Positions 5,272 to 34,271 are shown, counted from the stretch's first letter. The stretch is 56,846 bases of DNA from a virus (IMGVR_UViG_3300032046_003054:1-56846); one strand, 5' to 3'. The notes: a model not told the origin generated them from the sequence alone. Numbers and translations are program-made.

Positions 5272-5273
5272 AA

Positions 5274-14630: not shown

Positions 14631-14808
14631 AATTCTCTTCTAATACTTCAAATTTACATTTATATGCTCCAACTTTAATAAATTGGTAATTCTCCCCAGT
14701 CATTAATCTTTTTTGTCTTATGTGTGCAACAAGCATAGAAAATGTCATTTCAAATTCCTGTTCTAATTCTTTAATTTCAATAAGTTTTATCTTTTCTAAA
14801 TCTTTCAT
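14617..14808 (-). CDS. Hypothetical protein
   Basis: 63-aa ORF in operon. Confidence 0.5.
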   Translation of the reverse strand: MKDLEKIKLIEIKELEQEFEMTFSMLVAHIRQKRLMTGENYQFIKVGAYKCKFEVLEENFETE

Positions 14809-14812
14809 AACA

Positions 14813-15574
14813 TTATTTTATCTCGTAATAAGGAATATCCATCCTGCGAGGATATCCGATTTTTGTCATCTGTTCGTCCATATAAGCCAAGAAGTCCTCC
14901 AAGAACTCCCACTGGTGATACTTCTCCAATTCCCAGGAATGTGACCATGCTTCAAACCTCCCGCCCTCCTCAATCACCTCGTCAAACTTTGCCTTTGCAT
15001 ATTCCGTCCAAACAAGCAGGTTCGGCACCTTTTCATATTCTGTTATCTCACAACTGTTGACAATGTCGTATTTTCTAAATGGCATTATGTGAACAGTCGG
15101 TCTCGCCTCAAAAGGGTCTTTGGGAAAATCTATACAACCAGCCTTCACGGTTCTCGCCTCTAAAAAACCAGCCCTCTTGACCACTTCCTTGACCCTGTCG
15201 CTGAACCTGCCCCTCGGATAGCAGAACCTCCTGACCTCATAGTTCGGATTGATATTTGTCCTGATGACACTTTCCAGCATCTTCTTCCCCTCAACAATCT
15301 CGTATTCCAGCTCTTTGTCGGTAAGTTCGTTGAACTCCCTCGGGTGCGTGACGCTGTGTGCCCCAATCTCAAACAAGTCCTTCGTTATCTTGCACATCTC
15401 ACAGTTCGGCAGTGTGCCAGCCAACTGCCTGACCTGATGGTCTGACAAATCCCTCGCCTTAACTGGAATGTAGAATACCGCAGGTATCTTGTATTTAATC
15501 AGCATATCCGCAAGAGTGAGGTCAAGTTGGTCACCGTCGTCAAAACTCGCAAATATTTTTATTCTTTTTGACAT
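14813..15574 (-). CDS. Polysaccharide deacetylase (CE4/NodB-like)
   Basis: SFDDG, EIGAHSVTHP, FCYPRG, WSHSWE; likely start MSKRIK. Confidence 0.9.
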   Translation of the reverse strand: MSKRIKIFASFDDGDQLDLTLADMLIKYKIPAVFYIPVKARDLSDHQVRQLAGTLPNCEMCKITKDLFEIGAHSVTHPREFNELTDKELEYEIVEGKKMLESVIRTNINPNYEVRRFCYPRGRFSDRVKEVVKRAGFLEARTVKAGCIDFPKDPFEARPTVHIMPFRKYDIVNSCEITEYEKVPNLLVWTEYAKAKFDEVIEEGGRFEAWSHSWELEKYHQWEFLEDFLAYMDEQMTKIGYPRRMDIPYYEIK

Positions 15575-16065
15575 ATAAAATAATTTATCCAATAATTTCT
15601 ATTATGATTGGTTTTTAAATGACAATCATTACATAAAGTTATCAGATTATTCGGATTGCAATTCTTTTTATTATAATCTATATGATGAACGGTCAATTTT
15701 CTTCTTTCTTCTAATTCTGTTTTTCCACAAACTTTACATTTTCTTCTGTCCCTATTCCTGATGACTTCTTTCAAATCCTCATTAAACTCCAACCCGTATG
15801 GCTCAAAAGAGCTTCCATTATTCCAAAAGGGATGATTTTTTCCTTTCTTAAATTCTGATTTCGGATGATTTCCAATTTTAAATTCAGTTTTAGGAGAAGA
15901 ATGTTGACCTTTATGTGATTCTATCATTTTTTTTCTTGCTTCTTCTGTGGGTCTTCTTCCTATTGCTTTTTCTTTTATTTTATTTTTTGTTTCATCTGAA
16001 ACAATATGACCTTTTTGAAAGGTATAAGCGTTTTTGTATTTGGGATGTCCTTTTGGAAATGCCAT
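15559..16065 (-). CDS. Free-standing HNH homing endonuclease (NUMOD3-like N-terminus)
   Basis: IRNRD..CKVCG, VHHIDYNKKN...NLITLCNDCH. Confidence 0.92.
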   Translation of the reverse strand: MAFPKGHPKYKNAYTFQKGHIVSDETKNKIKEKAIGRRPTEEARKKMIESHKGQHSSPKTEFKIGNHPKSEFKKGKNHPFWNNGSSFEPYGLEFNEDLKEVIRNRDRRKCKVCGKTELEERRKLTVHHIDYNKKNCNPNNLITLCNDCHLKTNHNRNYWINYFICQKE

Positions 16066-16114
16066 ATTACCTTATTATAAACCAAAACAACACAAAAAGC
16101 AAAAAATGTCTATC

Positions 16115-16519
16115 TTAATTCTTTTTGGTTCCATAGATTTTCTTTGGCTCTCTTAATATTGCATCTATATCTTTAAGCATCTCTTCTTCGTTCAATGCCG
16201 AAGACAAACAATCATCTCTCTCCTTTTTCATAGAAACAACATCTGTTAAATCCTTTTCCTTCACTTTCAAACTGTTCTCCCATTGGACTATCAGTTCCCT
16301 GTCCTTATCCTTTCCTTTCAGTTTTTCGTTTGAGATGTCCTCCCTTATCTTAGTAATATCCTTTGTAAGAACTTCAATCGCCCCATCACCCCTAAATTCT
16401 ACAAATTTCTTGTTGAAGCGATAGGCGTCAAAATAGTGCCTTATGATATTGTCTATCCACTTTATCCTCGTTGCTTTTAATGCTCTTTTTATTTCTCTGT
16501 TGTTAAATTCTATTGGCAT
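16115..16519 (-). CDS. Hypothetical coiled-coil protein
   Basis: 134-aa ORF in operon. Confidence 0.55.
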   Translation of the reverse strand: MPIEFNNREIKRALKATRIKWIDNIIRHYFDAYRFNKKFVEFRGDGAIEVLTKDITKIREDISNEKLKGKDKDRELIVQWENSLKVKEKDLTDVVSMKKERDDCLSSALNEEEMLKDIDAILREPKKIYGTKKN

Positions 16520-17382
16520 AATTTTATAATTTCATTTTTAAATTTATGTCTGGGCTTCCAGCCGACCTTTTTGTCCGCCTTCCTGATATCCGCATAGCTG
16601 TATCGGACATCAACTTCGGGCATTGGAACCTCCCTCACTTTTAAATTCGGATATTTGCTCTTCACTATCTTTATCAATTTGTTCAATGTTATCACCTCCG
16701 AACCACCCAGATTGAAAGTCGCAAAATTATCCTTCGGCTCGTAGTCAATCAACTTAATTATTCCGTCCGCCAAATCATCAACGTGGGTATATCCCCTTGC
16801 CGACCTGCCGTCCCCGTATTTGACAAACTCCGTCCCTTTCCTGCCCGCCTCAATTAACTTTCTAACAACCATATCCTCCCTCCCGTTCTCCCCGTAAACG
16901 GTGAAAGGTCTGAAAACTATGACTGGAATCTTAGCACTGAACATCCTACAAACCATCTCTGCCCCCTTTTTACTAACAGCATAGGGCGACATCTGTGAAT
17001 TACATTCCATTGTTTCGCTTAAAGGCGAAACTTCATTGCCATAAACAGACGAGGAAGAGGCAAATAGGAACTTCTTTACCCCCGTCCTCAAAGCCCATTT
17101 CAAAAGCCAGTATGTCCCAGTTATATTAGTTTCAAAATACTGGTCTGGTATTTCAAGCGACTTCCTGACCCCCGCCAAAGCGGCAAGATGGATTACAATG
17201 TCTGGCTTGGCATTTTTCAAAACGCATTCAACATTATTTTCCTTTCTTATATCATCTAAAATGGCATCATTTTTTATATCCATTCCACAAACATCATACC
17301 CCAACTCCTTTAATCTTTTGAAAAGAACCCTACCGATAAACCCATCTGAACCTGTAATAATAATTTTATATTTTTCTGTCAT
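16510..17382 (-). CDS. NAD-dependent epimerase (UDP-glucuronate 4-epimerase-like)
   Basis: ITGSDGFIG, HLAALAGVR, ASSSSVYG, YAVSK, FTVYG..GREDM. Confidence 0.92.
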   Translation of the reverse strand: MTEKYKIIITGSDGFIGRVLFKRLKELGYDVCGMDIKNDAILDDIRKENNVECVLKNAKPDIVIHLAALAGVRKSLEIPDQYFETNITGTYWLLKWALRTGVKKFLFASSSSVYGNEVSPLSETMECNSQMSPYAVSKKGAEMVCRMFSAKIPVIVFRPFTVYGENGREDMVVRKLIEAGRKGTEFVKYGDGRSARGYTHVDDLADGIIKLIDYEPKDNFATFNLGGSEVITLNKLIKIVKSKYPNLKVREVPMPEVDVRYSYADIRKADKKVGWKPRHKFKNEIIKLCQ

Positions 17383-17579
17383 CTTAATTTCCTAAAAATT
17401 ATCCTGCCTATTTCCGACCTCTTAGGCAATTCAACTATTACCCTGTCCCCGACAATTATCTTTATCTTGTTTATCATCAGTTTGCCAGCAGTATAAACCC
17501 TTATCGTTATTCCACTATCTAACAGAACCTTGAATTGGGCATTTGGCAAACATTCTGAAATTGTTCCTTCAATTTTCAT
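17379..17579 (-). CDS. infA: Translation initiation factor IF-1
   Basis: EGTISECLPNAQFKVLLDSG...GKL..NKIKIIVGDRVIVEL...GRIIFR. Confidence 0.92.
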   Translation of the reverse strand: MKIEGTISECLPNAQFKVLLDSGITIRVYTAGKLMINKIKIIVGDRVIVELPKRSEIGRIIFRKLR

Positions 17580-17697
17580 TTCTTTGGTGGGTCATCACTT
17601 TCTAACTTTTTGTATTTCGGCTCTTTACCTATCTTGTTAATAATCCAAGCAATAAAGATAATGACAACCATTATTATAAAAATTATTACTATCATAT

Positions 17698-18513
17698 TCA
17701 AATAAATGACTTAAATCCTTGTTTAGAAAGCAATTCATCGTTATACTTGTCTGTCGCTTTCAAGATTGGAAGATTAATACCCAAATTATCAGCAAAATCA
17801 ATTATTGCCTTTGTGTCTTTCGGCAAACACTTACCCCAGTATCCTCTCTTACCTTTGTGCATAATCGTCAGATGTGTTCTTCCAACTCGCCTATCTGCCG
17901 CCAATCCATCAACTACCTCTTCCCACTGCTCTTCTGTCAGACCAAACCCTTTAACCAAATCATACATCTCATTATTGTGTGCCACCTTTATTGAAAACCA
18001 GATATTTTTGACATACTTAATAAACTCTGCCACTTCGCTCGGAACTATCCTCTCGTGTGAAGCCAAAGGAAGTTGTTGTATGACATCCTTCGCCACATTT
18101 TTACTCTTATCCGTATAGCCAATTATCTGACTATCTGGAAAAGACATATCCTGGTCTGCTGTTTCTTCTGTCAAAAATTCGGGGTTGAATAAGATTTTAT
18201 GCTCTGGAAACTCGCTCTGCAACAATTGCGTTGTTCCTGGTGGAATTGTTGACTTAATGATAATTATCTTTCCATCATCCAATTCATAAATTACATCTCT
18301 CACAAGATTAACATTACAACCCTTCCCAATTTCATAGGGAGTCGGTAAGCAGATGTAGATATAGTCCGCCTTATTGACTTCCTCCATAGAGCCGATGCCC
18401 TTTTTGTCAAATAGGAATAAATTATAGTGCGTCTTCTTTTCAAAGTATCTTCGCAATGCACCCCCGACCATTCCAATTCCAATTATTCCAATCTTATACT
18501 TTTTTTCTGCCAT
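17698..18513 (-). CDS. UDP-glucose/GDP-mannose dehydrogenase-family protein (lacks C-terminal domain)
   Basis: GIIGIGMVG, CLPTP, IKSTIPPGT, NPEFL, GYWGKCLPKD. Confidence 0.9.
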   Translation of the reverse strand: MAEKKYKIGIIGIGMVGGALRRYFEKKTHYNLFLFDKKGIGSMEEVNKADYIYICLPTPYEIGKGCNVNLVRDVIYELDDGKIIIIKSTIPPGTTQLLQSEFPEHKILFNPEFLTEETADQDMSFPDSQIIGYTDKSKNVAKDVIQQLPLASHERIVPSEVAEFIKYVKNIWFSIKVAHNNEMYDLVKGFGLTEEQWEEVVDGLAADRRVGRTHLTIMHKGKRGYWGKCLPKDTKAIIDFADNLGINLPILKATDKYNDELLSKQGFKSFI

Positions 18514-18651
18514 ATTTTTTTCTTTTTATTATTAAATTATTACAGTCAATTCCATAACTTTTAAGTTCTTTTTTTAATCTTTTAATGGCTTGTAATTTAG
18601 CCCGCTTTAACGCTTCCTGATATCGTTTATTATCCAATAAAATCGGCATCT

Positions 18652-19665
18652 TCATATAAGTTTATCTGTCCAACTTTTTGGAGTCAACTCATTTATTATC
18701 TCTATGGAAAGGTGATACTTGAACCTCTTTGTTCCCCTTGCTTTTATGTAGTCAATCATCTCTTTTAATCCATCTTTTAATTTCCATTCGGTTTTGTAGC
18801 CGAGCAACCTTCTCGCTTTATCTGCACAACAATTAGCCTCTTTAACTTCTTGCGGTCTGCCCTTTAAATAAATGGGCTTCAAATCAAATCCTATCTGAAA
18901 TGCTATTGCCTCGGCTAATTCTTTTATAGTAATAAATTCCTCATCGGGACCGATGTTTATTACCTCTCCTACCACATTATCTTGAAAAGCGAGTTTGACC
19001 AGAGACGTGATGTCGTCCTTGACATAACTGAAACATCTCTTCTGGCTTCCGTCCCCGTAAATTATCGGTTGCTGACCTTGGAGCATCTTGTTTATGAAAA
19101 TTGAAGCAACATTCCTGAAAGGGTCGTCATACTTCTGCCTCGGACCTATGATATTATGTGGAACTGCTATCACATATTCCATTCCGTGAACTTCTGCAAG
19201 ATTTCTTAAAAGCAATTCCGATGCGTATTTCCCTATCCCATATGGGTCTTGCGGTTGGCAAACCATATCTTCTGTGAACGGAACTGGGTTAGTCCCGTAG
19301 CGAGCCATAGAGGATAACATAATAAATCTTTTAACCTTGTTCTGTATTGCTGCTGAGATGACGGAAGAAGTAGCCAGATAGATATTCTCGGCAATCAGGT
19401 GCGGGCTGAAAACACTCAATCCCTCGTATGCGGTAGCGGCACAATGGTAAACCACATCTGCCCCTTTCATTATCTTAACCATCGTGTTGAGATATTTGCA
19501 GTCCGCCAAATGAAATTCTACCTTATCAGATACATTGTCCTGATAGCCACCTATCAAATTGTCGCAACCGATTACCCGATGACCCAACTTTAAAAATTCG
19601 TCGGCAAGGTGGCTCCCCAAAAATCCTGCACAGCCTGTTATAAAAATAGTTTTCTTTTCATTCAT
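18652..19665 (-). CDS. NAD-dependent epimerase/dehydratase
   Basis: ITGCAGFLGSHL, PYGIGK, HNIIGPRQ, GDGSQKRCF. Confidence 0.93.
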   Translation of the reverse strand: MNEKKTIFITGCAGFLGSHLADEFLKLGHRVIGCDNLIGGYQDNVSDKVEFHLADCKYLNTMVKIMKGADVVYHCAATAYEGLSVFSPHLIAENIYLATSSVISAAIQNKVKRFIMLSSMARYGTNPVPFTEDMVCQPQDPYGIGKYASELLLRNLAEVHGMEYVIAVPHNIIGPRQKYDDPFRNVASIFINKMLQGQQPIIYGDGSQKRCFSYVKDDITSLVKLAFQDNVVGEVINIGPDEEFITIKELAEAIAFQIGFDLKPIYLKGRPQEVKEANCCADKARRLLGYKTEWKLKDGLKEMIDYIKARGTKRFKYHLSIEIINELTPKSWTDKLI

Positions 19666-21320: not shown

Positions 21321-21837
21321 TTTTTTGTATTATTTCTATCTTAATTTTATTTATATCCTCTTCCGCCCCGATGCCCAGCTTCTGGATGTTAATTGGTAGC
21401 CCCAATTCTATTTGTATTCGTTTGTATATTTCACTAATACTATCTGAATATTGTTTAAAAAAAGTATAATCATTTTTATTCAAAGGTTTTTCAGGATTTG
21501 GATTCACTATTCTTCCAAGTATTTCAAGATATTTTGAGTCTAAACCAAAAAGCAATTTTTTATTAATTAAAAGGTCTTGAAGGGATATTTTTAACTTTTC
21601 CATTAACTCTTTATCTGCTTGTTTTTGTATATTTTCTACTCTTTTTTGTTTCCAAACTTTTTTCTCTTCTGTCCAACCCTCAACTTTGCTTTTTATCCAT
21701 CCGCTGTGTTCCACCGTTTCCGCACCCAATTTTGACTTAATAAAAGTAAATGATTCTAATATATCAGAATTAAAAAATTCCTGCTTCAAAGCATCCCAGT
21801 CATATTTGGCTCTTCCTTCTTTTATTTCTTCTGTCAT
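21262..21837 (-). CDS. Putative terminase small subunit
   Basis: Overlaps terL start; KYDWDALKQEF N-terminus, helical body, KIKIEII tail. Confidence 0.6.
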   Translation of the reverse strand: MTEEIKEGRAKYDWDALKQEFFNSDILESFTFIKSKLGAETVEHSGWIKSKVEGWTEEKKVWKQKRVENIQKQADKELMEKLKISLQDLLINKKLLFGLDSKYLEILGRIVNPNPEKPLNKNDYTFFKQYSDSISEIYKRIQIELGLPINIQKLGIGAEEDINKIKIEIIQKNDGNKPEEHNSIPEEPAGV

Positions 21838-23054
21838 AGTTTTGTTGCCTTTTGATTAGTAAATTTTTCAAAACGGTCAATAATAACTTGACAATACTTT
21901 TCATCTATTTCCATCATATAACATTTTCTATTTAATTGTTCGCAGGCGATTAGGGTGCTTCCTGAACCACCAAAGAGGTCTAATACTATTTGATTTCTTT
22001 CAGAATATCTTTCTAAAATTTCTTTCATCAAATTTAATTGTTTAGGACAACTATGTCCCCCCACATCTTTTTGTCTTATATTATTAATTTCAAAAATATC
22101 GCTATTCTCTACAATAAATCTTTTTGCTGTTTCTACATTTTTAATAACTTCTTCGTCTAAAATCTTTAAGTCTCCTGTTAAAATATCATTTGGAATTTTT
22201 CTTCTTTTAATTTTTTTAGCATAAATTAAAATCGGTTCCCAAATACTAAATAAACTAATCCTACTTCCACTTGTTTTATTTCTTGCTATCCAAATTGCTG
22301 TTCCTAATGGTCTTTCTATATTATACCACATCTTCAAATTCCATTTCCCAATAGTCAAAATAATAATAGGAACAAATTTTATAAGTTCTCTAAACCATAA
22401 TTCACACCATTCTCTGTATTCTTTGGTTTCTTTTTTATCCAAAAAATCCCAATAATCATAACCAATATTATATGGCGGGTCACAAAAAGAAATATCCGCC
22501 TTCTCTCCCCCCATCAGCTTTTCCACATCTTTCTTTTTTGTGCTATCCCCACATAATAATCTATGATTTCCAAGTTGGTATAAATCCCCCAATTTAACCA
22601 ATGGTTCTTTAATTTTTTCGTATTCCTCCTCTGCATCAAAATCATCTTCATTGGTTTTTAATCCAAAAATCTCATCTAATTCATCTGATTCAAATCCCAC
22701 ATCTTTTAACATATCTTCATTAAAATTTGCCAATTCTTCAAAATTCCATTCACCCAAATTTTTATTTGCTCTCAAAAGATATTCCCAATGTTCTTCTTCG
22801 GTTAATTGTCTATTCGGCACTCGGACATCTATTTCCTCTCCTTGTTTCCCGTCTAATTTCAAAAGAATTATTCTTTGATGCCCTGAGATTATCCTATTAT
22901 CCAAATTTATTGCGGGAATTTCTACCAAATTAAACTTCTTTAAAGATTTCTTCAAATCTTCCGCTTGCTTTTCGGTCATTTGTCTTGGATTCCCTTCTGT
23001 CGGGATTAACTCTCCAATTTTTCTCTTTTCGGTATGCCAAATTAATTTTTCCAT
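21834..23054 (-). CDS. ParB-N domain + N4/N6 DNA methyltransferase
   Basis: NPRQ, ISGHQR; HRLLCGDST, CDPPY, HSCPK, LDLFGGSGSTLIA. Confidence 0.92.
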   Translation of the reverse strand: MEKLIWHTEKRKIGELIPTEGNPRQMTEKQAEDLKKSLKKFNLVEIPAINLDNRIISGHQRIILLKLDGKQGEEIDVRVPNRQLTEEEHWEYLLRANKNLGEWNFEELANFNEDMLKDVGFESDELDEIFGLKTNEDDFDAEEEYEKIKEPLVKLGDLYQLGNHRLLCGDSTKKKDVEKLMGGEKADISFCDPPYNIGYDYWDFLDKKETKEYREWCELWFRELIKFVPIIILTIGKWNLKMWYNIERPLGTAIWIARNKTSGSRISLFSIWEPILIYAKKIKRRKIPNDILTGDLKILDEEVIKNVETAKRFIVENSDIFEINNIRQKDVGGHSCPKQLNLMKEILERYSERNQIVLDLFGGSGSTLIACEQLNRKCYMMEIDEKYCQVIIDRFEKFTNQKATKL

Positions 23055-23080
23055 TTTTATCTTATAAATTTATTAACCCA

Positions 23081-23141
23081 ACATTTCCCCGCCTTTTTTC
23101 TAAAAACGCTTCCTGCGGGCAATTAAGGCGTAAAGTTATAG
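23081..23141 (-). repeat. 61-bp dispersed element, inverted copy of 38875-38935
   Basis: 49/61 identical in an ungapped hand alignment. Confidence 0.85.
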
Positions 23142-23160
23142 GCTCAAATCTGCTGACACC

Positions 23161-23931
23161 CTATAACTTTGCCGATAATCTCCTCTGGCCTTCCAAATAC
23201 AGCTTATTCCAAGAATAGTTCGGTTCAAACATTTTATGCTTATCATTCTTTATTATCTTACAATAATCTGGATATTTTTTCATTAAATAAATACAGTGTT
23301 CTTTAACAAGTTCTCCGTTCCTATAAAAAACTTCAAGCCCCCCTTTCTGTGTCGCCATTTTGTGAACAAACATATACTCATTCCAAGTAGCAGTTTTATA
23401 TCCATTCAAAAGAAGTCTTGCCGTTAATTCCCTATCATTAAACATTTTCAAGTTTTCATCATACCCTCCCGCTTTTTTCAACTTTTCAGCATCAATAAAA
23501 ACCAATCCCCAGCCTTGTGTAATCATTTTTATCGGTTTCTCATAATACCAATTATGTCCTATAAAACTAACGCTCAATTGTGCCAAGTCAAAATTCTTAA
23601 TTATAGCTTCACCCTCTTTCAAAAATATGTCAATCTCTTCTGGTTTAACAGTTTCCGACTTTTCTCTTGTTATTCTTTTTTTAAGCCCATAAATATCATC
23701 ATCACTAAATAGATAGTATTTCTCTTTATTTTTAAGCGTATAATCTATTAAAGCATTTGAAAAATATCCGAAGCCAGCATCATTTTTTTCCAGTTTAACT
23801 ATTTCTAAGTCTGGATTTTCTTTTTTATATTCATCATAAAACTGCGGTTCAACAAATAGAACTATTTTCTTGTCAAATATCTTTTTAAGGGAGAATTGTA
23901 GTCGTTGTCGGCTTCCAACTAATATCTTCAT
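23161..23931 (-). CDS. GT-A glycosyltransferase, TET-associated (TAGT/GREB1-like) type
   Basis: ILVGSRQR, FVEPQFYDEY, FSDDDI, NDREL, QKGGL; context next to ParB and radical SAM genes. Confidence 0.65.
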   Translation of the reverse strand: MKILVGSRQRLQFSLKKIFDKKIVLFVEPQFYDEYKKENPDLEIVKLEKNDAGFGYFSNALIDYTLKNKEKYYLFSDDDIYGLKKRITREKSETVKPEEIDIFLKEGEAIIKNFDLAQLSVSFIGHNWYYEKPIKMITQGWGLVFIDAEKLKKAGGYDENLKMFNDRELTARLLLNGYKTATWNEYMFVHKMATQKGGLEVFYRNGELVKEHCIYLMKKYPDYCKIIKNDKHKMFEPNYSWNKLYLEGQRRLSAKL

Positions 23932-25192
23932 TGGTTTTGAAAGTTATCATTAACTTTATAAATTATATTTCCCTCTTGGTCAATTCCCATTGGCTTCAAA
24001 TATCCTGCAAAATACAGATAAGGGCAGTATCCTTGTTTCTTGGTTGTATTCCACAAAGACCTTACATATTCTTTCCCATTCTGTATCTTCCTTTTCCTTG
24101 AACACATTCTACTTCTCGCTATCCAAATCTCTCCACTCTTGAAAACCTGTGCCCAATCAATACTCGCTTCCACATCTTTCCAATAAACTATGCCTTTTTC
24201 CTTCGCAATTTTCAATGCCAAATTAAATGGCGAAGTCATAAAATTACAACTATCTGCTAATCCGCAACAACTTAGATTATCATTTAAAAATTTGAAATGC
24301 GGGTCTGAAATTGCAAAGCGTAATCCCAATTCGTGGCATAATTCTTTCATTCTATAAACATATTTCTCTTTTAGTTTTGGATTCAATCGCATATAAGAAA
24401 CTGCACCCGTGCTCAATTTCCTGTAATACTCAAAAATATCATATCCCAGCACTTTGCTTAATATCTCATATCTTTCCCGAACTTTTACCCCAGCCATTCT
24501 CTGAATGCAAAGCCATTCAACTGATATGGCTTCCGCCCCGCATTCGTGTGCCTTCCTTATCAAATCTTCATAACAATTACTCGTAATGCCTTGCAGGAAT
24601 GGTCTAATCCTAATTATCTGGGGAATGCCCATATCGTGATAAAACTTCATCGTGGCGAACCTTTCTGACGAACTGGGAGCGTTAACTTCTATCTGTCTAG
24701 CTTCTTCATCATCATCAGTTATAATCGTCCACATTATAACAAAGTTTTTTGACCCCCTAAATGCTTCAATGTATTCTGGCTTCATCAGGGTTCTCGCCCC
24801 TTTTGTGCAAATACGAATAGGATAATCTAATTCTCTAAAAAACTTTACCAATTTCAAACTCTCACCTTCTTTTTCTTCTATGGTATCAAATGGGTCTGTC
24901 AATCCGCCCCACTGCATCATCTTTTTGTTTTTAATGAAAATCTCATAAAACTTTTTTGATTGTTTATCTCCTGCTTTCCCACTAAAAATCTTTTTAATCC
25001 TTTCAATGTTCACTTTTGTAATCCAATCACCCTTCTCTTCTCTTGAATTACAAGCTGGATTATTAGCCCTTATCATCCAAGAAAAACAGTAAAGACATTG
25101 ATAACCACAGGTGCTATACGTGTCAAATGTTAATGGAACTGAACAATCCATCGTTTCGTACGATAAACGAGGAGAATTATAGGTCGCCTTCA
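23928..25192 (-). CDS. Radical SAM protein, spore-photoproduct-lyase-like family
   Basis: DTYSTCGYQCLYCF, WGGLTDPF, TK, AP.SSERF, CCG; likely start MKATYNSPR. Confidence 0.88.
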
Positions 25193-25743
25193 TTTTGGAA
25201 ATAATTTGTCCACTTTTTTCTTCCATAATTTGTTTTACTATGACAACTATTACATAAAGAAATCAAATTTTTAGGGTCTGAATTTTTCTTATTATAATCT
25301 ATATGATGAACATACAAAACTTTAAATTTTTTCTTACACAATCTACAATGATATTTATCTCTTTTTCTAATAAGTATTTTTAATTCTTCATCAAAATTAA
25401 AGTCATATGGCTCTCTTGAAATTCCACCCCGCCAGTTTGAATTATCTTTTCCCTTATATTGTGGTGGTTTTATTCCTAATCTTAAATTAGCTTCTCTTTG
25501 TTTTTGTTTTGTTTCTTCTGAATGCTTTTTACCCGTAAAGCCCTTACTAAATAATGGATGTCCTTTTTTGAATCCACATTTTCCTTCTGCCACAGCATTT
25601 TTGATACTTTTTCTATGTTTTTCAGATAATTTCCTACCTATGTGAAATTTTCTAATTTTTTCCTTTGTTTCATCTGTATGATGTTTCCCAAGCCAACCAT
25701 TATTGCCTTTCAAAAATCTACCTTTTTTATCTCTTTTAATCAT
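25177..25743 (-). CDS. Free-standing NUMOD3-HNH endonuclease
   Basis: GKHHTDETKEK, GKKHSEETK, VHHIDYNKKN..NLISLCNSCH. Confidence 0.92.
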   Translation of the reverse strand: MIKRDKKGRFLKGNNGWLGKHHTDETKEKIRKFHIGRKLSEKHRKSIKNAVAEGKCGFKKGHPLFSKGFTGKKHSEETKQKQREANLRLGIKPPQYKGKDNSNWRGGISREPYDFNFDEELKILIRKRDKYHCRLCKKKFKVLYVHHIDYNKKNSDPKNLISLCNSCHSKTNYGRKKWTNYFQNEGDL

Positions 25744-26566: not shown

Positions 26567-26950
26567 TTATTTAATTTTATTTAGAAATTCATAAAAATCC
26601 CTCCACTCGTTTTTTATCTCCACGATGTCTCCGTTCGGATTTTTAACCTGCCTCCACTTTAAGAAGGCGTCTTCAACTTCCTCCTGCACAAACAAAACCT
26701 TGCCCAAACTTTCAGCCAAATCTTCAATTATCTTGTCCTGACATTCAATTTTCGCCTTCGCCTTTGCTTCAATCTGGCGAACACGCTCCCTCGTCAAGTA
26801 TAGTTTATCACCTATCTCCTGCAAGGAAAATCCCTGCTCCCTCAGACTCAGGACGGTCTTCTCGTTCTTTTTCAGTCCGGCAATAAAAGGATAGACAAGG
26901 TCTTTATCCTTTATTTCGGTTTCAAGTATAATTTTTATCTGATTTTTCAT
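26567..26950 (-). CDS. Sigma-70 region 4 HTH protein
   Basis: SLQEIGDKLYLTRERVRQIEAKA. Confidence 0.85.
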   Translation of the reverse strand: MKNQIKIILETEIKDKDLVYPFIAGLKKNEKTVLSLREQGFSLQEIGDKLYLTRERVRQIEAKAKAKIECQDKIIEDLAESLGKVLFVQEEVEDAFLKWRQVKNPNGDIVEIKNEWRDFYEFLNKIK

Positions 26951-27197: not shown

Positions 27198-27395
27198 TCA
27201 TAGATATAATAACTCTTTTAATTTCTTAAATGCCTTTTTAAAGGTTGGTTCACAAAAACCCACTCCTGCCCCTGCAAAATTCTTGGTTTCAATACAATAA
27301 AGTTTGTCCTTATATTCGCAGTTGTTTTTAGTTCCTTTTCTTTCTCTTATTCTGCGAACCTTTATTGTTAGATATAATATTTCTTCGTCTTTCAT
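27198..27395 (-). CDS. Hypothetical protein
   Basis: 65-aa ORF, ATGA-coupled to upstream gene. Confidence 0.5.
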   Translation of the reverse strand: MKDEEILYLTIKVRRIRERKGTKNNCEYKDKLYCIETKNFAGAGVGFCEPTFKKAFKKLKELLYL

Positions 27396-27835
27396 TGGAT
27401 TAAGAGTTTAAGCAAATCTTCTGGTAAAACTGCACCATCTTTCCACTGCTTTCTACACCATTTTATCATCCTTTCTTTCTCACTCTTTACTCCTTCCTCA
27501 AAAGCCTTCTTCTCAAAGAATTTGTCGTATCCTCTTTTTTGCCCGACTTCTTTCCAAACACTCACACTATAGCAGGGGTCTTTTTGTCCTTCTTTGTAAG
27601 AGAGTTCTTTTTGGGCGGAAATAAAAAGGACAATTTCTTCATAATCCATACCTTCGTGCCATTTTTTGGAAAATTCTTCCTGCCAAGTTTGGGTTGGATA
27701 ACATATTTCACAATCTTTTCTCCCACAGGGTTCGTTATTCCAGTTCTTTTCTTTGGTGGGTGGGACTTTCTTTAATGGACTTCCATCTTTATTTCTTGTT
27801 TCTAACAAATCAATATTATTTCTTGTTTCTAACAT
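27392..27835 (-). CDS. Hypothetical protein with duplicated LETRN motif
   Basis: 147 aa; CxxxxCxxC. Confidence 0.55.
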   Translation of the reverse strand: MLETRNNIDLLETRNKDGSPLKKVPPTKEKNWNNEPCGRKDCEICYPTQTWQEEFSKKWHEGMDYEEIVLFISAQKELSYKEGQKDPCYSVSVWKEVGQKRGYDKFFEKKAFEEGVKSEKERMIKWCRKQWKDGAVLPEDLLKLLIQ

Positions 27836-27869
27836 ATTATTTTGTTTAATTATTTATTGACTAACCTCT

Positions 27870-28016
27870 TCATTCTTTTTCCTCGTGTCTAATTGTTGCT
27901 TTGACATAACCTTCCTCTTTTGTAGCAGGTCTAAAAGTTTTTTTAACTACTCTCATACCGCATTTTTGGCAATACTCTCGGTTTTTATCTAAAATATGTT
28001 CACAATTATTTTTCAT
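27870..28016 (-). CDS. Small Cys-containing protein (48 aa)
   Basis: Hand-translated MKNNCEH...YCQKCG...EEKE*. Confidence 0.5.
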   Translation of the reverse strand: MKNNCEHILDKNREYCQKCGMRVVKKTFRPATKEEGYVKATIRHEEKE

Positions 28017-28045
28017 TTTCTTTCTCTTTAATAATATTCCTCAGA

Positions 28046-28177
28046 GAGAGTGGGCTGGGCGAGAGGTGCAAGCTCTGACCTTGCATTTCCCCGATGGTCG
28101 GGGAAGTTAGTTTTGCACTAACGATGGATATTCCCAGCTGGAATATTACCCACTCCTCTCTCACTCAACCCGCTCTC
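28046..28177 (-). ncRNA. Candidate structured RNA, copy 1 (closing stem + four internal hairpins)
   Basis: GAGAGCGGGTTGAGT...GCCCAGCCCACTCTC arms shared with copy 2; GC-rich intergenic segment. Confidence 0.55.
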
Positions 28178-28178
28178 C

Positions 28179-28478
28179 CTACCTATGGGTGGGGGTTGTT
28201 GTGTAATATATCGGCATTCCTAAATTCCTAACTTCAAATACTATCCTTTCACGCTCTTTTATATATGCACCGCAAAATATCATTAATGCCGACAATTCAT
28301 TTTCATCAAGTAAATTTGTCTGAGCTAAATTTCTACCAAAAATAAACATATCAGCTGGCCAATTTATATTACTTTTTTTAGATGTAATCGTAAATTGCGG
28401 GGTATTATCTTTATCTTTCCAAAATTGCATTGAAAATAAAGCATTTTTTATTAACTTGTAATCTCTACTTTTCTTCAT
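28179..28478 (-). CDS. Cassette-array hypothetical protein
   Basis: Starts in repeat R3; last codons PTHR* are encoded by repeat R4. Confidence 0.6.
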   Translation of the reverse strand: MKKSRDYKLIKNALFSMQFWKDKDNTPQFTITSKKSNINWPADMFIFGRNLAQTNLLDENELSALMIFCGAYIKERERIVFEVRNLGMPIYYTTTPTHR

Positions 28479-28513
28479 ATTTATTTTATTTACTTTCTTT
28501 TTCCTCTCCCTAC

Positions 28514-28720
28514 CTATGGGAGGGGGTTAAAGTATTTTTCTATTTCTTCAAATTGATTTTCTTCTAAGAATTTAATTTGATATTTTTTCTTTAACGCTCC
28601 CCATTCTTCTTTTTTTAATCCCATAGCTTTAACAAGACCTATAATGTCATCTCTATTGTGCACTCCGTGGCAAAAACCAAGTAATTGCTGTTCAGCTTTC
28701 ATTAGATTTATGTTGTTCAT
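28514..28720 (-). CDS. Cassette-array hypothetical protein
   Basis: Start reassigned to the ATG in repeat R3 (MNNINL); ends NPLP* within R4. Confidence 0.6.
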   Translation of the reverse strand: MNNINLMKAEQQLLGFCHGVHNRDDIIGLVKAMGLKKEEWGALKKKYQIKFLEENQFEEIEKYFNPLP

Positions 28721-28751
28721 ATTTATTTTATTTAATTTCTTTTTCCTAAAA

Positions 28752-28844
28752 GAGAGTGGGCTGGGCAAGGGATATGTGGAACCGCCCCACCTACTTTACT
28801 GCAGTAAGTAGCACTCATCTTTATCCCCTACTCAACCCGCTCTC
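28752..28844 (-). ncRNA. Candidate structured RNA, copy 2 (same closing stem, different interior)
   Basis: Same 15-nt arms; inner stem GGGATA/TATCCC and two hairpins. Confidence 0.55.
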
Positions 28845-28862
28845 CCTACCTATGGGTGGGGG

Positions 28863-29087
28863 TTAACCATCGTGAATACATAACTCCCATTTACATTTAG
28901 GACATTTTATCGCTGTATAATAATCTCCAACTCCCACTATGAATTCTGTACCACCGCATTTCTTACACTTTACTTTTGAAGCAGGGACTTTGTCATAACA
29001 TTGACCTATTTCAAATTCATCATCATCTGTTTTTATGATTACGTCTTCATAATTTGGTTGTTCATAGTCTTCGTTAAATTTCTTCAT
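28863..29087 (-). CDS. Cassette-array zinc-ribbon protein
   Basis: CKKC...CPKC; starts in R3. Confidence 0.65.
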   Translation of the reverse strand: MKKFNEDYEQPNYEDVIIKTDDDEFEIGQCYDKVPASKVKCKKCGGTEFIVGVGDYYTAIKCPKCKWELCIHDG

Positions 29088-29124
29088 ATTTATTTTATTT
29101 TACTTTCTTTTTCCTTCTCGGGGG

Positions 29125-29376
29125 TTAAATCGCACTTCTCGCATACTTATCAAAAATCTTGTTTCTTTTAATCTTATCAGTTTCTACTTTGTATTTTTCA
29201 AAGTATTTATCCTCCATATAATAAGCCATCATATAAGCCCAAGGGTCTGAATCAAAAGTGGATTTACTTACTACCCCGCCACATAATGAACCGCCACGAT
29301 TCCTAAAAGTGCTTTCTCCCTTCTCTAAAATTTTAGGTTCTTCTCTTTTTTCTTTTGATATTGAGTTTGTGGGCAT
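29125..29376 (-). CDS. Cassette-array hypothetical protein (MPTNSISKE start)
   Basis: Starts in repeat R2. Confidence 0.6.
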   Translation of the reverse strand: MPTNSISKEKREEPKILEKGESTFRNRGGSLCGGVVSKSTFDSDPWAYMMAYYMEDKYFEKYKVETDKIKRNKIFDKYARSAI

Positions 29377-29381
29377 AGGAG

Positions 29382-29723
29382 TTAAGATTTTAATAATGAT
29401 TCGTTTTTACAATTTGAACATTCTGCTTTTTTCTCTAATGTTGTGATTGCAACATGAGTCCCCATTACCCTACCCAACGCTACAATTTGTTTAGCGTGTT
29501 TTTCACAGCAATCTACTGGTCCAGTCACCCAATGGACTGTGCAAGTCGCTGGATATTTTATTTCTTTTTCCTTCTCCTGCCACCAAGTTTTATATCCTTT
29601 TGCTTTTGGGCAACTTATTAAATGCCCTATTTCCTCTCCGGTTTCTTCTGTAAAAGGACAGATGCACTTTGCTTCGGCTTTACTTCTTTTTCTTTCTTCT
29701 TTTGATATTGAGTTTGTGGGCAT
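29382..29723 (-). CDS. Cassette-array Cys-rich protein (MPTNSISKE start)
   Basis: Starts in R2; CIC..H..SC, CCEKH, CSNC. Confidence 0.65.
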   Translation of the reverse strand: MPTNSISKEERKRSKAEAKCICPFTEETGEEIGHLISCPKAKGYKTWWQEKEKEIKYPATCTVHWVTGPVDCCEKHAKQIVALGRVMGTHVAITTLEKKAECSNCKNESLLKS

Positions 29724-29730
29724 AGGGGGT

Positions 29731-29922
29731 TTAGGTTGTTTTTTTAGATGAATTAAATTCTTCCGCCAATTTTTCTACATCTATGCCATTACTATCAACT
29801 TCTTTTCCACATTTAATACATTCATAATGTCCACCTATCGCTCCCCGAGGTTCTTCTCTTGCATATTCCATTACTCCTATGATTTTTGCTTTACAGCATT
29901 TAGATTTTATTTCTTTTTCCAT
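29731..29922 (-). CDS. Cassette-array zinc-finger protein (MEKE start)
   Basis: Starts in R1; SKCC...CIKCG. Confidence 0.65.
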   Translation of the reverse strand: MEKEIKSKCCKAKIIGVMEYAREEPRGAIGGHYECIKCGKEVDSNGIDVEKLAEEFNSSKKTT

Positions 29923-29979
29923 AGTGGTTAGTTTATTTAATTTCTTTTTCCTTCTCGGCTTCTTTTGATATGTGGTTAG

Positions 29980-30132
29980 TTAATTTTCTTCTAATAATTT
30001 AATAATTCCCAATGTTATGGCTTTTAAATAGTAATTACTTATTCTCCAAACAGAATCGTCTTCTGTGGCTTTTTCTATCAACTTTTTCATTTCTTTAATT
30101 ATTTCTTCTTTTGATATTGAGTTTGTGGGCAT
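29980..30132 (-). CDS. Cassette-array small protein, 50 aa (MPTNSISKE start)
   Basis: Hand-translated MPTNSISKEEIIKEMKK...LLEEN*. Confidence 0.55.
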   Translation of the reverse strand: MPTNSISKEEIIKEMKKLIEKATEDDSVWRISNYYLKAITLGIIKLLEEN

Positions 30133-30138
30133 AGGTAA

Positions 30139-30297
30139 TTAATTAAGGGGAGCTGATAAAGCATATCCACAGAATGGACAAGTATGCAAATCACCATTAC
30201 TATAAATAAGTTTATCTTTTCTCGGCACTACCTCTTTTTTACAGCAAGCACAATATTCTTTTTTTGTTTCTTTTGTTTCTTTTATTTCTTTTTCCAT
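30139..30297 (-). CDS. Cassette-array zinc-ribbon protein, 52 aa (MEKE start)
   Basis: Hand-translated MEKEIKETK..YCACC...CPFCG..PLN*. Confidence 0.6.
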   Translation of the reverse strand: MEKEIKETKETKKEYCACCKKEVVPRKDKLIYSNGDLHTCPFCGYALSAPLN

Positions 30298-30302
30298 AGT
30301 GG

Positions 30303-30506
30303 TTAGTAATTAAACATTTCATCTTCTCCTGAATACTTTCTTTCACGGTCATCTCCAAGTTTTGCTAAAACCTTTCCTTGTTTTGTTAGCAAATATCTGA
30401 CTCGTCTTATTGGGTCTTCTGGCGTTCCTTTTCCTTCATTGACTTCTACTTTTAATAATTCTACCATTTTTGCATCTCTAAAATTTGCGTATGTTTCTTT
30501 TTCCAT
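30303..30506 (-). CDS. Cassette-array hypothetical protein (MEKE start)
   Basis: GKGTPEDPIRRV; both start and stop lie inside R1 copies. Confidence 0.65.
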   Translation of the reverse strand: MEKETYANFRDAKMVELLKVEVNEGKGTPEDPIRRVRYLLTKQGKVLAKLGDDRERKYSGEDEMFNY

Positions 30507-30732
30507 AGTGGTTAGTTGGTTAGGTTAATAATACGGGGGATTAATTTTCTTTTTTATAACGAATAATTATTATCGATTTATCTCCGTTTTGCTTAAATTC
30601 TTTAATATCAAAGTTTTCACTGTCAAAAAATCTTTTAATCGGAGTGTTATATGGGGCGTGGATGATAATTTCTGTTTCTTCAAATAATCCATTTTTAATT
30701 GTATTATCTTTTTCGGCCATAAAATTAAGTGT

Positions 30733-31041
30733 TTAATTTGTATTCTCTTGTTTTCTCAAAATACGACAAGGGATAATATAAACCTCCACATCACTTCCTT
30801 TTATTAATTCTATCGGATATTTTTGGATTTCGGTTGCTTTTATACATTTTATTTGTTCGTGTTTAAACCAGGTCAAATCAATTATTCCATCTAACTCCGC
30901 CCTGTAATCCACCAGTTTCTTATTAAGACCCAGATACCATTCCCCTTCTTTGCCTCCATACTTTTGCCAATAGTTAAAAAGTGGGGTTTGAATATGGATT
31001 CTTGTCGCATTTCTCTCTTTGTGTTTTTTTAAGTATTGCAT
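30733..31041 (-). CDS. Hypothetical protein
   Basis: 102 aa, overlaps the replication gene stop. Confidence 0.55.
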   Translation of the reverse strand: MQYLKKHKERNATRIHIQTPLFNYWQKYGGKEGEWYLGLNKKLVDYRAELDGIIDLTWFKHEQIKCIKATEIQKYPIELIKGSDVEVYIIPCRILRKQENTN

Positions 31042-31775
31042 AGTTCCAAGTATTTTTTAACTGCTGTTTCAATTTTGAAATCCTCTCCACCCCACCCCTT
31101 AAGCCACGCATATGCTTTATCCAGCATCTCACAAGCCCTATCCGTCTGACCATCGCACAGTTCAAGGAGTTGTTTCGCCGCCCGCAAATGTCTTTTATAA
31201 TCATCTGGCTCTTGGTTGGTGATTTGCAGATAATAATCCACTACGATAGCTATTTTATTCATATTTGCAGGGCGAAACTTTAGTTTCGCATTATAATTAT
31301 TCTTATGTTTTTCTTTAATGTTATTCTTTGAGGTGTTTTGGGACCCACTTTCTGGTGCTATTAGACCCACTTTCGTTGTTTTAGGCTCCACTTTCAAGGT
31401 GGTCGTTTGAGCACCACTTTCTATTTTATTAGCCAAAACCCCATTTTCATATTCTTCTATATTTATCTTCCACAAATCAACCATTAAAAACTGTCTTACA
31501 CTTCCACCCCTTACTTTTACTGGCTCTGTTTCTTTTATCCACTTTCTTGCTAAAAGTTTTTTAATTGTATTTCCAACGGTTTGTTTATGAGCCCCCATTT
31601 TTTTTGATAAAGTGTTTATTGAGGCATAACAACTTCCCTTTTCTCCCGCAATTCTTTTCATTATCAAATATAAACTTTGCTCATAAGCAGTAGAATGATT
31701 CACCACCATATTAGGTATTTGGGTATAATATTTTCTGTCTCCGCTTTCATCTATGATTTGTATTTTTTCTTCCAT
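31029..31775 (-). CDS. Replication initiator / replisome organiser (winged HTH)
   Basis: YTQIPN, CYASINTLSKKMG...TIKKLLARKWI, low-complexity linker. Confidence 0.75.
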   Translation of the reverse strand: MEEKIQIIDESGDRKYYTQIPNMVVNHSTAYEQSLYLIMKRIAGEKGSCYASINTLSKKMGAHKQTVGNTIKKLLARKWIKETEPVKVRGGSVRQFLMVDLWKINIEEYENGVLANKIESGAQTTTLKVEPKTTKVGLIAPESGSQNTSKNNIKEKHKNNYNAKLKFRPANMNKIAIVVDYYLQITNQEPDDYKRHLRAAKQLLELCDGQTDRACEMLDKAYAWLKGWGGEDFKIETAVKKYLELCNT

Positions 31776-33391: not shown

Positions 33392-33619
33392 TTATTTTTT
33401 ACTTTTTTCCTCAACTAACTTTGATACTGCCTCATTTAACTCTTTGGCTTTCAATTCTTTGGTTTTTCCAATAATAGCATAAATTATTACTGCAAAAATA
33501 CCAAATAATAAGCCCATAAAGATAGCCAATCCCTTGCTCCTTCCATTTCTTTCGGCTATCCTATAACACCAATATGCTAAACCTGCTATGATTACAAATG
33601 GTATAATTATTTCTGTCAT
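33392..33619 (-). CDS. Small two-TM membrane protein
   Basis: IAERNGRS between two hydrophobic segments. Confidence 0.7.
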   Translation of the reverse strand: MTEIIIPFVIIAGLAYWCYRIAERNGRSKGLAIFMGLLFGIFAVIIYAIIGKTKELKAKELNEAVSKLVEEKSKK

Positions 33620-34092
33620 ATTTTTATTTTATTTAATTGTTTTTGTTTCCGACCTTTGTTTCTATAATTAGGAGTTAATTGATGACAATTTTTACAAAGA
33701 GTAATACCATTATCAATGATAAATCTTAATCGTGGATAGTTAATCCATTCTTTAATATGATGAGTTTCTAAATTGCCTCCAACTTTTTTGCAAACTTGAC
33801 ATCTATAACCATCTCTTGCAAGCACTGCTTTTCGCCAAAAATACATTTTTGAACTTGCTCTTTCTAATTGATTTTTTAAAGATACGCCACCTTTCCAATT
33901 TGGATTTTTATCACCTCTCATTTTTTGAGAACATTTTAAATTTCTTTTGCCCCACATTGGATTATTTTCTCCCATCATTCTCTTAGAGTGTTCTGGTCGT
34001 TTTTTTCCTAAATTCCATTTATTACCCAATTTTGCTTTGGCCATTTTATCTCTATGCTCTTTTGTAAATTTTGTTCCTTTTATTGTGGACAT
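33616..34092 (-). CDS. Free-standing HNH endonuclease
   Basis: NPNWKGG, WRKAVLARDGYRCQVC, HHIK..NGITLCKNCH; likely start MSTIK. Confidence 0.9.
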   Translation of the reverse strand: MSTIKGTKFTKEHRDKMAKAKLGNKWNLGKKRPEHSKRMMGENNPMWGKRNLKCSQKMRGDKNPNWKGGVSLKNQLERASSKMYFWRKAVLARDGYRCQVCKKVGGNLETHHIKEWINYPRLRFIIDNGITLCKNCHQLTPNYRNKGRKQKQLNKIKI

Positions 34093-34271
34093 TTTTTTAT
34101 AAAACAAGAATTGCAAAAATGTTCGTGCTCTCTCTTTTCTTTCCCATTTATTTCGGCTATTGAATACTCAGGTATAATATATCCACAAAAATTACAGAGT
34201 GGCAACCCGCATTCGCAACAATAGTGATTTGCTTCTATTTTATTTTCTATATCGTAGGCACAGGTTTCCAT
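34080..34271 (-). CDS. Small zinc-finger (B-box-like) protein
   Basis: CCECG.PLC..C...FC..C. Confidence 0.6.
   Translation of the reverse strand: METCAYDIENKIEANHYCCECGLPLCNFCGYIIPEYSIAEINGKEKREHEHFCNSCFIKKCPQ

Follow-up and report, generated by a model that had tools for sequence, protein, structure and literature searches.

By analogy, the closest known system to the gene array described here is the promoter-early stem-loop (PeSL) shuffling of T4-type phages, which takes place in their hyperplastic regions (Arbiol et al., 2010, PMC2839356; Comeau et al., 2014, PMC4122927). As far as the available parts of these papers go, PeSL are short repeated regulatory cassettes, each consisting of a strong σ70-like early promoter and a terminator stem-loop, that lie between small non-essential open reading frames (ORFs). 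Insertions, deletions and replacements are described at the cassettes, chimeric cassettes are left after exchange, neighbouring cassettes recombine to give mini-circles, and no dedicated recombinase is invoked. Here we analyse a linear IMG/VR record of 56,846 bases (IMGVR_UViG_3300032046_003054, CheckV completeness 67%; this whole stretch is called the window) from an uncultured, tailed, siphovirus-like phage from sediment. It holds an array of small accessory ORFs that are joined by four families of short repeats, R1 to R4. We regard it as fairly probable that this is a hyperplastic accessory-gene array whose standard modules act both as expression adaptors and as short-homology crossover points. 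New with respect to PeSL are a coding leader, a translated tail, three-frame stop blocks, the lack of a canonical promoter and the type of phage.

Two further systems invite comparison. The Start-Associated Sequences (SAS) and Extended Start-Associated Sequences (ESAS) of Cluster K mycobacteriophages are, in the accessible portion of the report, asymmetric repeats in one orientation at the starts of non-structural genes of different families, with upstream inverted repeats in a subset; there they are regarded as signals for translation initiation rather than as sites of exchange (Pope et al., 2011, PMC3203893). In the bicistronic-design or two-cistron expression elements of synthetic biology (e.g. 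PMC5995908, as excerpted), the end of a leader overlaps the next start, and initiation is then independent of the downstream gene.

Four repeat families join unrelated small genes

The array is flanked by a replication-initiator gene (31029-31775) and a gene for a sigma-70 region 4-only protein (26567-26950).

27870..30720, minus strand: array of 11 small accessory ORFs (48-113 aa), from ORF calling and profile searches

A first-pass annotation of this DNA had recognized nine ORFs of 50-113 aa between 28173 and 30540. All nine were recovered on the minus strand, and the limits were corrected to 27870 and 30720, which enclose 11 ORFs. The cargo ORFs had been called mutually unrelated, and blastp indeed gave zero matches among the 11. 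The description of several of them as zinc ribbons held in part: CxxC pairs are present, but the Pfam matches are weak (E 0.003-0.01) and fall under the curated cut-offs. No array ORF scored above the curated cut-off in Pfam, PHROG or NCBIfam. The anti-defence or host-takeover role that the first-pass annotation had suggested may apply to the cargo, but neither families nor folds gave a match that would support it.

R1 (22 nt), R2 (30 nt) and R4 (25 nt) are each present in three exact copies, as had been reported. For R3, given earlier as three copies and a partial one, a scan allowing 3 mismatches gave two copies, both exact, the third carries one inserted A, and the partial copy is at 29935-29954. 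All copies of R1 to R4 are on the minus strand, and none lies outside the array in the 56,846 bases (0.00 expected from shuffles). The copies are as follows.

30494..30515, minus strand: R1 copy 1; starts the 67-aa ORF 30303-30506 (MEKET)
30507-30528, minus strand: long form of R1, TTAACCTAACCAACTAACCACT; TAA in three frames, then ATG
30285..30306, minus strand: R1 copy 2; its TAA stops ORF 30303-30506 and its ATG starts the 52-aa ORF 30139-30297
29910..29931, minus strand: R1 copy 3; starts the 63-aa ORF 29731-29922
30106..30135, minus strand: R2 copy 1 (ATG and MPTNSISKEE); in-frame fusion to the 50-aa ORF 29980-30132
29697..29726, minus strand: R2 copy 2; in-frame fusion to the 113-aa composite ORF 29382-29723
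29350..29379, minus strand: R2 copy 3; in-frame fusion to the 83-aa ORF 29125-29376
29083..29114, minus strand: R3 copy with the 1-nt insertion; upstream of the 74-aa ORF 28863-29087
28716..28747, minus strand: R3 copy; upstream of the 68-aa ORF 28514-28720
28474..28505, minus strand: R3 copy; upstream of the 99-aa ORF 28179-28478, directly joined to R4
28840..28864, minus strand: R4 copy; its TAA is the stop of ORF 28863-29087
28504..28528, minus strand: R4 copy; its first TAG is the stop of ORF 28514-28720
28173..28197, minus strand: R4 copy; its second TAG is the stop of ORF 28179-28478

The modules carry stop and start signals

That the junction repeats bring ready-made stop and start signals, and that R4 supplies the stop, is borne out by how they are used. 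Each of the three window copies of R4 serves in a different reading frame. Together with the preceding T, R4 reads T-TAA-CCCCCACCCA-TAG-G-TAG-GGAGAG, with one stop per frame; across five R4 copies the stop used is TAA three times and the first and the second TAG once each. Since R4 and long R1 hold stops in three frames, an upstream gene terminates in whatever frame it arrives. R4 with its preceding T and long R1 both have this property, which is found in 0.2% of same-composition shuffles.

R2 is conserved from its ATG onwards, over 27-33 nt, and its upstream flank is variable. Twelve genuine copies are available from the window and the contigs described below. Six of them, including all three in the window, are in-frame fusions to different cargo. 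The other six (G001_4509, L036_667, L037_779, L038_586, L038_1103 and L039_732, some of which precede methyltransferase genes) are free leader ORFs of 11-13 codons, MPTNSISKEEI followed by a stop, and variants. These end overlapping the next ATG, in five copies as ATATGA and in L038_1103 through an internal ATG. The layout of the free copies would be that of a leader cistron that couples translation to the following gene. The 5' part of R3, in turn, is often translated as the C-terminal tail (...EKEKEIK and a stop) of the upstream cargo, as in L032_101, L037_811 and P0124.

The 83-aa cargo, which has 30 homologue clusters at E up to 0.001, allows the fused form to be compared with its relatives. 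None of 12 aligned homologues has the MPTNSISKE extension, so R2 was added onto an existing gene. A model of this family has a mean predicted local distance difference test (pLDDT) score of 74, with low confidence in the N-terminal 33 residues, and Foldseek gave no match for it in the PDB at E up to 0.001. Tags that target proteins to the capsid are known from the internal proteins of T4, and MPTNSISKEE was considered as such a tag. This was set aside, since free mini-ORFs make up half of the copies and the tag is missing from the cargo homologues.

Start regions in this genome mostly lack Shine-Dalgarno sites. A Shine-Dalgarno-like tetramer is found at -18 to -4 in 12 of the 88 starts of the window, and the 20 nt before starts are 52% A. 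All nine R1, R2 and R3 start regions are predicted to be less folded (0 to -2.0 kcal/mol) than the remaining 79 starts are in the median (-3.4 kcal/mol). Those of R2, at 0 to -0.2 kcal/mol, rank 1st to 9th among the least structured of the 88.

A further candidate signal is the motif AGGT[CA]GG, which occurs 20 times on the gene strand versus 3 times on the opposite one; 9 of the 20 are located 33-49 nt before a start. The direct join of R4 (28504-28528) to R3 sets AGGTAGG 37 nt ahead of the ATG of ORF 28179-28478. On the minus strand, AAAGGTCGG (AGGT[CA]GG) at 38735, 35307, 33655, 33390, 28515, 17420, 16568 and 10315 lies 33-49 nt ahead of annotated starts, and it is often accompanied by TAAAAT about 12 nt before the ATG. 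AGGT[CA]GG at 33-39 nt and TAAAAT at about 12 nt would make a promoter-like geometry different from that of σ70, perhaps a promoter specific to the phage whose leaders are very short or lacking.

Such features would also suit modules that are expression signals and nothing else. Translation starts, operator sites for a repressor like RegA of T4, promoter elements or RNA processing sites could be kept alike by selection on that function, with no special part in gene exchange. The exact conservation of R2 from its ATG beside a variable upstream flank, the unstructured start regions, and the strand bias and spacing of AGGT[CA]GG, the R4-R3 junction included, all agree with this. We nevertheless judge it improbable as the full explanation. 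Homology that is limited to junctions, between arrays with unrelated cargo and at 33% terminase identity, requires exchange at or beside the modules, and the 113-aa fusion and the empty cassette described next are rearrangements whose end points lie inside modules.

A fused cassette and an empty cassette

Two places in the array bear the marks of rearrangement at the modules.

29555..29581, minus strand: collapsed junction GAGAAGGAAAAAGAAATAAAAT inside the 113-aa ORF; translated EKEKEIK, joining two once-separate cassettes
29932..29979, minus strand: empty cassette ('scar'); CTAACCAC (R1), ATATCAAAAGAAG (R2 end) and CCGAGAAGGAAAAAGAAATTAAATAAA (R3)

Residues 51-113 of the 113-aa ORF match four free-standing proteins of 62-69 aa. 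One of the four, P0121 (87% identical), begins MEKEIKYPATC, a start of the R1 type. Residues 17-55 have their counterpart in the C-terminus of P0124 (116 aa). The joint, GAGAAGGAAAAAGAAAT-AAAAT, is exactly the product expected from a deletion between the 12-nt GGAAAAAGAAAT of R3 and that of R1, where it sits in the first codons. The undeleted form is seen in the intact R3-R1 junction at 29910-29958. The 113-aa ORF consists of two cassettes that were fused where an R3/R1 junction collapsed.

The scar had been described as built of fragments of R1, R2 and R3, and this was confirmed: on the gene strand it consists of 8 nt from the start of R1, 13 nt from the end of R2 and a copy of R3. In the R2 frame it reads ISKEAEKEKEIK and then a stop, with neither an ATG nor cargo. 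It is an empty cassette, in which a start module is joined straight to a tail module.

Four sediment runs, X1 to X4, contain parts of the window, X1 being its probable source, and no RNA run is listed; all were followed as Logan contigs, and gaps in the cover by X2-X4 carry no meaning. The X1 unitigs break exactly at the repeats, and none of the pieces listed extends across the whole array, as one would see if the repeats had caused a chimeric or mis-ordered assembly. However, the window is covered in its own order by eight unitigs that show 0 differences from it, the modules occur in independent contigs from other samples, and the repeats, at 22-35 nt, are presumably shorter than the reads. 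An assembly artefact, named in the first-pass annotation as an outcome that would overturn it, can thus be given next to no weight.

Contigs from X1-X4 also join the modules otherwise than the window does, e.g. 27807 to 28021, 28866 to 29087, 28740 to 29078 and 29958 to 30100. The single backward joint (30123 to 28727, with CATA between) places the upstream region of R3 onto the coding start of R2; it reads better as an R3/R2 chimeric junction of another genome. The alternative joints agree with a mosaic picture, and equally could stem from other phages that carry the same modules. A depth spike at 30123-30339 was discarded as a signal because it is caused by low-complexity T runs. Just beyond the array, at 27397-27560, X2 and X3 contigs swap 162 bases inside a 147-aa ORF (27392-27835) for 83 other letters; this ORF begins with a duplicated LETRN motif.

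The same modules occur in other phages with different cargo

The first-pass annotation had proposed a search for R1-R4 in related phages, and the modules, 90-100% identical and with unrelated cargo, are indeed present in six other phage contigs. Exact-word scans of IMG/VR with pieces of R1 and R2 returned one other record, G001 (39,277 bases, 99% complete), whose array is cut at the contig ends; R4 had no match in IMG/VR. A scan of metagenome contigs with a 20-mer of R2 gave 12 loci, of which L032 and L036-L039 are genuine. L033, L035, L040, L042 and L043 are chance 20-mer matches, in which the match ends at the 20-mer, the surroundings are GC-rich and no module flanks are present; L034 and L041 are copies of G001 and were dropped. 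In the fished loci the independent evidence is given by the flanks and extension of R2 together with R1, R3 and R4.

The contrast between modules and genes is marked. G001 and the window have large terminases that are 32.7% identical and share no array cargo, whereas their R1, R2 and R3-like modules are 90-100% identical. Among the window array and the six contigs (G001, L032 and L036-L039), blastn gave 161 between-contig matches, and 160 of these are 19-68 nt long and lie at junctions. The lone long match (235 nt, 86% identity) falls in a gene common to L036 and L037. With the first 5-11 residues masked, the 56 array ORFs (30 aa or longer) contain only 2 homologous pairs.

A 14-mer common to several starts (-30 to +15) is present at 14 of the 94 starts in the window, at 7 of 70 in G001, at 9 of 33 in the related IMG/VR phage L013 and at 2 of 29 in L014; none was found in 22 further loci, which were read on the strand carrying the gene matched by the query. 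As such repeats are seen in few loci, the trait marks a subgroup and not all relatives. L013 has start-junction repeats of its own before small ORFs at 1868-3916 (TAACCCCCTAACCCCTATATCAAGATG five times and CTAACCAATAAAATAAGATGAAAG three times), which differ from those of the window. Long tandem arrays are present in the related phage loci L014 (4156-4696, units of 12-66 nt) and L016 (12561-12788, 6-nt units of the GAGCGG/GAGTAG type).

Stem-loops at some junctions

Two GC-rich stem-loops, missed in the first-pass annotation, sit between R4 and the next start region.

28046..28179, minus strand: stem-loop A, 134 nt; base as in B, interior of four hairpins
28752..28846, minus strand: stem-loop B, 95 nt; conserved base GGGAGAGCGGGTTGAG / CCCAGCCCACTCTC, element-specific upper stem

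On the gene strand A and B fold with -72.4 kcal/mol (z -7.2) and -54.5 kcal/mol (z -4.5), respectively; on the opposite strand the z scores are -5.0 and -2.5. They occupy 2 of the 10 internal junctions of the array and belong to a family of seven, with two members in G001 and one each in L032, L059 and L060. The members share the base, with its two fixed unpaired positions, and differ in their interiors, which are variable self-complementary tops 63-260 nt long. Loop size ranges from about 19 nt to about 210 nt, and the arms of the L032 element enclose a 62-aa ORF. In all seven the cognate 3' arm is the best partner of the 5' arm; mean pairing energies for cognate versus non-cognate arms are -33.7 versus -23.3 kcal/mol for whole arms and -18.6 versus -10.4 kcal/mol for inner arms. 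RNAalifold recovered the base helix from six stem-loops with a covariation term of +1.94; with an invariant base and tops that fail to align, it gave no credit for covariation. Against Rfam the window as a whole had no match at the gathering threshold, and the three loci with stem-loops had none at E up to 1. Three conserved G-U pairs exist on the sense strand only, which points to RNA and not to folded DNA. We suggest, from these folds, that the stem-loops could be sense-strand RNA structures for processing or termination and the counterpart of the stem-loop of PeSL.

The first-pass annotation had likened the array to an integron, and there is a real resemblance: both are one-directional arrays of small, mostly promoterless cassettes with unrelated cargo, and at some junctions there is an imperfect palindrome whose ends are conserved and whose centre varies. 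The attC sites of integrons have the arrangement R''-L''...L'-R', with cores RYYYAAC and GTTRRRY. The stem-loops might accordingly be pictured as attC-like folded sites that an unrecognized enzyme recombines. Their conserved base with two fixed unpaired positions, their variable tops, the strict preference for cognate arms and the ORF enclosed by the L032 arms would fit, and 4 of the 7 5' arms contain GTTGAGT, which agrees with GTTRRRY. The 3' arms, however, have no RYYYAAC partner, so that the R''/R' core pair of attC is missing; hairpins are found at a minority of junctions and resemble sense-strand RNA, and the exchange points lie in the start and stop modules. No IntI was found. Nor did Pfam detect an integrase, a tyrosine or serine recombinase or a transposase in the 74 ORFs of the window (a record that is 67% complete) or in 34 of the 49 G001 ORFs that reach 70 aa. 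The likeness to an integron was therefore not upheld, and a site-specific system of this kind is very unlikely; the description of the array as recombinase-free stands for the ORFs covered.

A different enzyme comes to mind from L032, in which an HNH gene ends beside a CTCTCTGAGGAATATTATTAAAGAGAA module identical to the one after stem-loop A. An HNH-NUMOD3 endonuclease could cut the junction module of a co-infecting phage, and repair would then copy the neighbouring cargo. HNH ORFs are indeed plentiful, with five in the window and more in G001 and L032. None of them lies inside the window array, though, no cut site is known, and the fusion and the scar are explained by simple deletion from repeat to repeat. 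Homing-endonuclease exchange is hence an unlikely account of the array.

How the modules might work

We return to modules that combine expression with crossover. In such a scheme R4 and long R1 would be any-frame stop blocks, and R1, R2 and R3 would provide unstructured A-rich start regions in a genome mostly without Shine-Dalgarno sites. R2 would be a portable start, an ATG with about 10 codons, used either as an in-frame fusion or as a free leader coupled to the ATG of the next gene, and the 5' part of R3 would double as a C-terminal EKEKEIK tail with its stop. Some junctions would add a sense-strand RNA stem-loop with a conserved base. Modules of 20-50 nt recur within a genome and across co-infecting phages, and general short-homology recombination between them could delete, fuse, insert and exchange cassettes without a dedicated site-specific recombinase. 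The repeats, their frame usage, the junction-limited homology across contigs, one fusion and one empty cassette are observed directly; what the modules do in expression, which enzymes take part, and how fast and in which direction the events proceed are inferred.

As drivers of recombination, a nearby exonuclease, single-stranded DNA-binding protein (SSB) or RusA had been named. RusA is present (E 2.8e-12), the exonuclease is weak (a Cas4 domain in PHROG at E 4.8e-4 and the PDB entry Cas4 4ic1 at E 0.18), and no SSB was found in the window by Pfam, PHROGs or NCBIfam.

Several observations weigh against this scheme. Gain or loss of a cassette in the window array was not seen in any before/after pair of genomes. 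The collections searched held no close relative: INPHARED gave no DNA match (blastn, distant mode), the best initiator match was given as 52% identical, and terminase relatives are 57-67% identical. The Logan joints have sides of 20-33 nt, low depth and 85% likeness and often belong to other organisms or repeats, and for most of them deletion is indistinguishable from replacement; no circular form was seen in the Logan contigs of X1-X4. The identity of the R2 20-mer in the metagenome loci is by construction, as they were fished with the exact 20-mer. The genome is A/T-rich, and three-frame stops also precede other starts, 9 of 78 within 22 nt and 12 of 78 within 26 nt, so the argument from them is suggestive and not decisive. 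Neither canonical sigma-70 promoters (20 versus 17.7 expected from shuffles) nor intrinsic terminators (4 versus 3.8 expected, none of them on the gene strand) are enriched in the region. Finally, selection on expression alone could keep the modules alike, which is compatible with a role in recombination as well.

The earlier view that cassettes are gained and lost at the junctions thus stands in part. The unrelated cargo elsewhere, the empty cassette and the fusion of two cassettes speak for it. A circle joining repeat copies, which was to be looked for, was not seen in the Logan contigs.

Comparison with described systems

With PeSL the array shares short repeated cassettes between small ORFs, stem-loops that adjoin start signals, and chimeric junctions (PMC2839356, PMC4122927, in the parts available). 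Differences fall at the cassettes here too, to judge by the junction-limited homology across 7 arrays, among which there is no closely related pair of genomes, and a dedicated recombinase is again not invoked. Unlike in PeSL, the repeats here take in coding sequence, with a start codon and as many as 10 codons in R2, a translated tail in R3 and three-frame stops in R4 and R1, and the window has no evident canonical sigma-70 promoter. Stem-loops are present at some junctions only, with a conserved base and variable tops, and mini-circles were not seen in the Logan contigs. The window phage is siphovirus-like, probably with a Patescibacteria host, and Pfam found no T4-type core genes in it.

The one orientation of the repeats, their place at the starts of genes of different families, the proposed role in translation initiation and the inverted repeats upstream of a subset recall SAS. 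According to the section of PMC3203893 that defines it, however, SAS is 13 bp long, has a Shine-Dalgarno core and lies 3-7 bp before the start, whereas the modules overlap the ATG, run on beyond it and have no such core. The SAS consensus GGGATAGGAGCCC had a single match in the window, with 2 mismatches, at 5355 and not at a start (0.82 expected).

The overlap of leader end and next start in 6 of the 12 R2 copies is also the principle of bicistronic design, elements of which were reportedly described by Mutalik et al. in 2013. R2 differs in being natural and phage-borne and in its use as an in-frame N-terminal fusion, as in all three window copies. It also has no evident internal Shine-Dalgarno sequence for a second cistron; only the purine-rich AAGAAG might take that place.

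We speculate, tentatively, that a natural 'plug-and-play' cassette standard is common to a group of sediment phages whose hosts are probably Patescibacteria. It would possibly have three parts: an any-frame stop block; a portable, Shine-Dalgarno-independent leader cistron that works by fusion or by termination-reinitiation; and an optional RNA stem-loop. If so, the modules would be a common currency for gene exchange across the community, since they are conserved at the nucleotide level despite a core-gene identity of about 33%, and the standard would be more than a local repeat of one genome. A few standard junctions would stop any incoming frame, restart translation and supply homology for swaps between distant phages, which suggests a route by which phages of ultra-small bacteria, mostly without Shine-Dalgarno sites, could express and trade tiny genes. 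The R2 leader ORF and the three-frame stop blocks would extend the PeSL idea into coding sequence and resemble designs that synthetic biologists reached independently. As sequence tags, the modules could moreover help to collect this phage group's mobile accessory genes from metagenomes.

Genome context and host

All long ORFs of the window are on the minus strand. Pfam matches among them include an HK97-type capsid, a prohead protease, a portal, a large terminase (Terminase_3) and a tail tube (Phage_tube_2), as well as RusA, a DNA methylase, a replication initiator and many sugar-modification enzymes. Genes for tRNA or tmRNA were not found in the window.

Relatives of the initiator in species-representative genomes point to the host: 12 of 13 loci sit in metagenome-assembled genomes (MAGs) of Patescibacteria and 1 of 13 in a Sphingobacteriaceae MAG. 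The host is therefore probably a member of the Patescibacteria, also known as the Candidate Phyla Radiation (CPR). A single-protein search of IMG/VR with the initiator gave no related loci; the initiator of L013 is 59% identical to that of the window. The terminase search yielded 8 loci on contigs too short to extend to the array, and tblastn of 18 window proteins against L004-L016 gave 2 weak matches only.

The major capsid gene (49253-51364, minus strand) is split: ORF 50681-51364 corresponds to positions 1-81 of the Phage_capsid profile and ORF 49253-49816 to positions 92-278, with an HNH-NUMOD3 endonuclease ORF (49905-50555) between the two parts. This is probably an intron or a homing-endonuclease insertion. 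The endonuclease is one of the five free-standing HNH ORFs of the window (52453-52989, 49905-50555, 33616-34116, 25177-25743 and 15559-16065), 4 of which have NUMOD3.

Between portal and large terminase, at 4417-19665 on the minus strand, about 15 kb are taken up by sugar-modification genes, an unusual load for a phage of this size. They encode glycosyltransferases, radical SAM/SPASM enzymes, FkbM and other methyltransferases, epimerases, a UDP-glucose dehydrogenase and a polysaccharide deacetylase; the set is smaller in G001. At 21834-25226, also on the minus strand, a DNA methylase with a ParB-like N-terminal part, a TET-associated glycosyltransferase (TAGT, E 1.4e-10) and a radical SAM protein adjoin one another and form a candidate DNA hypermodification cluster.

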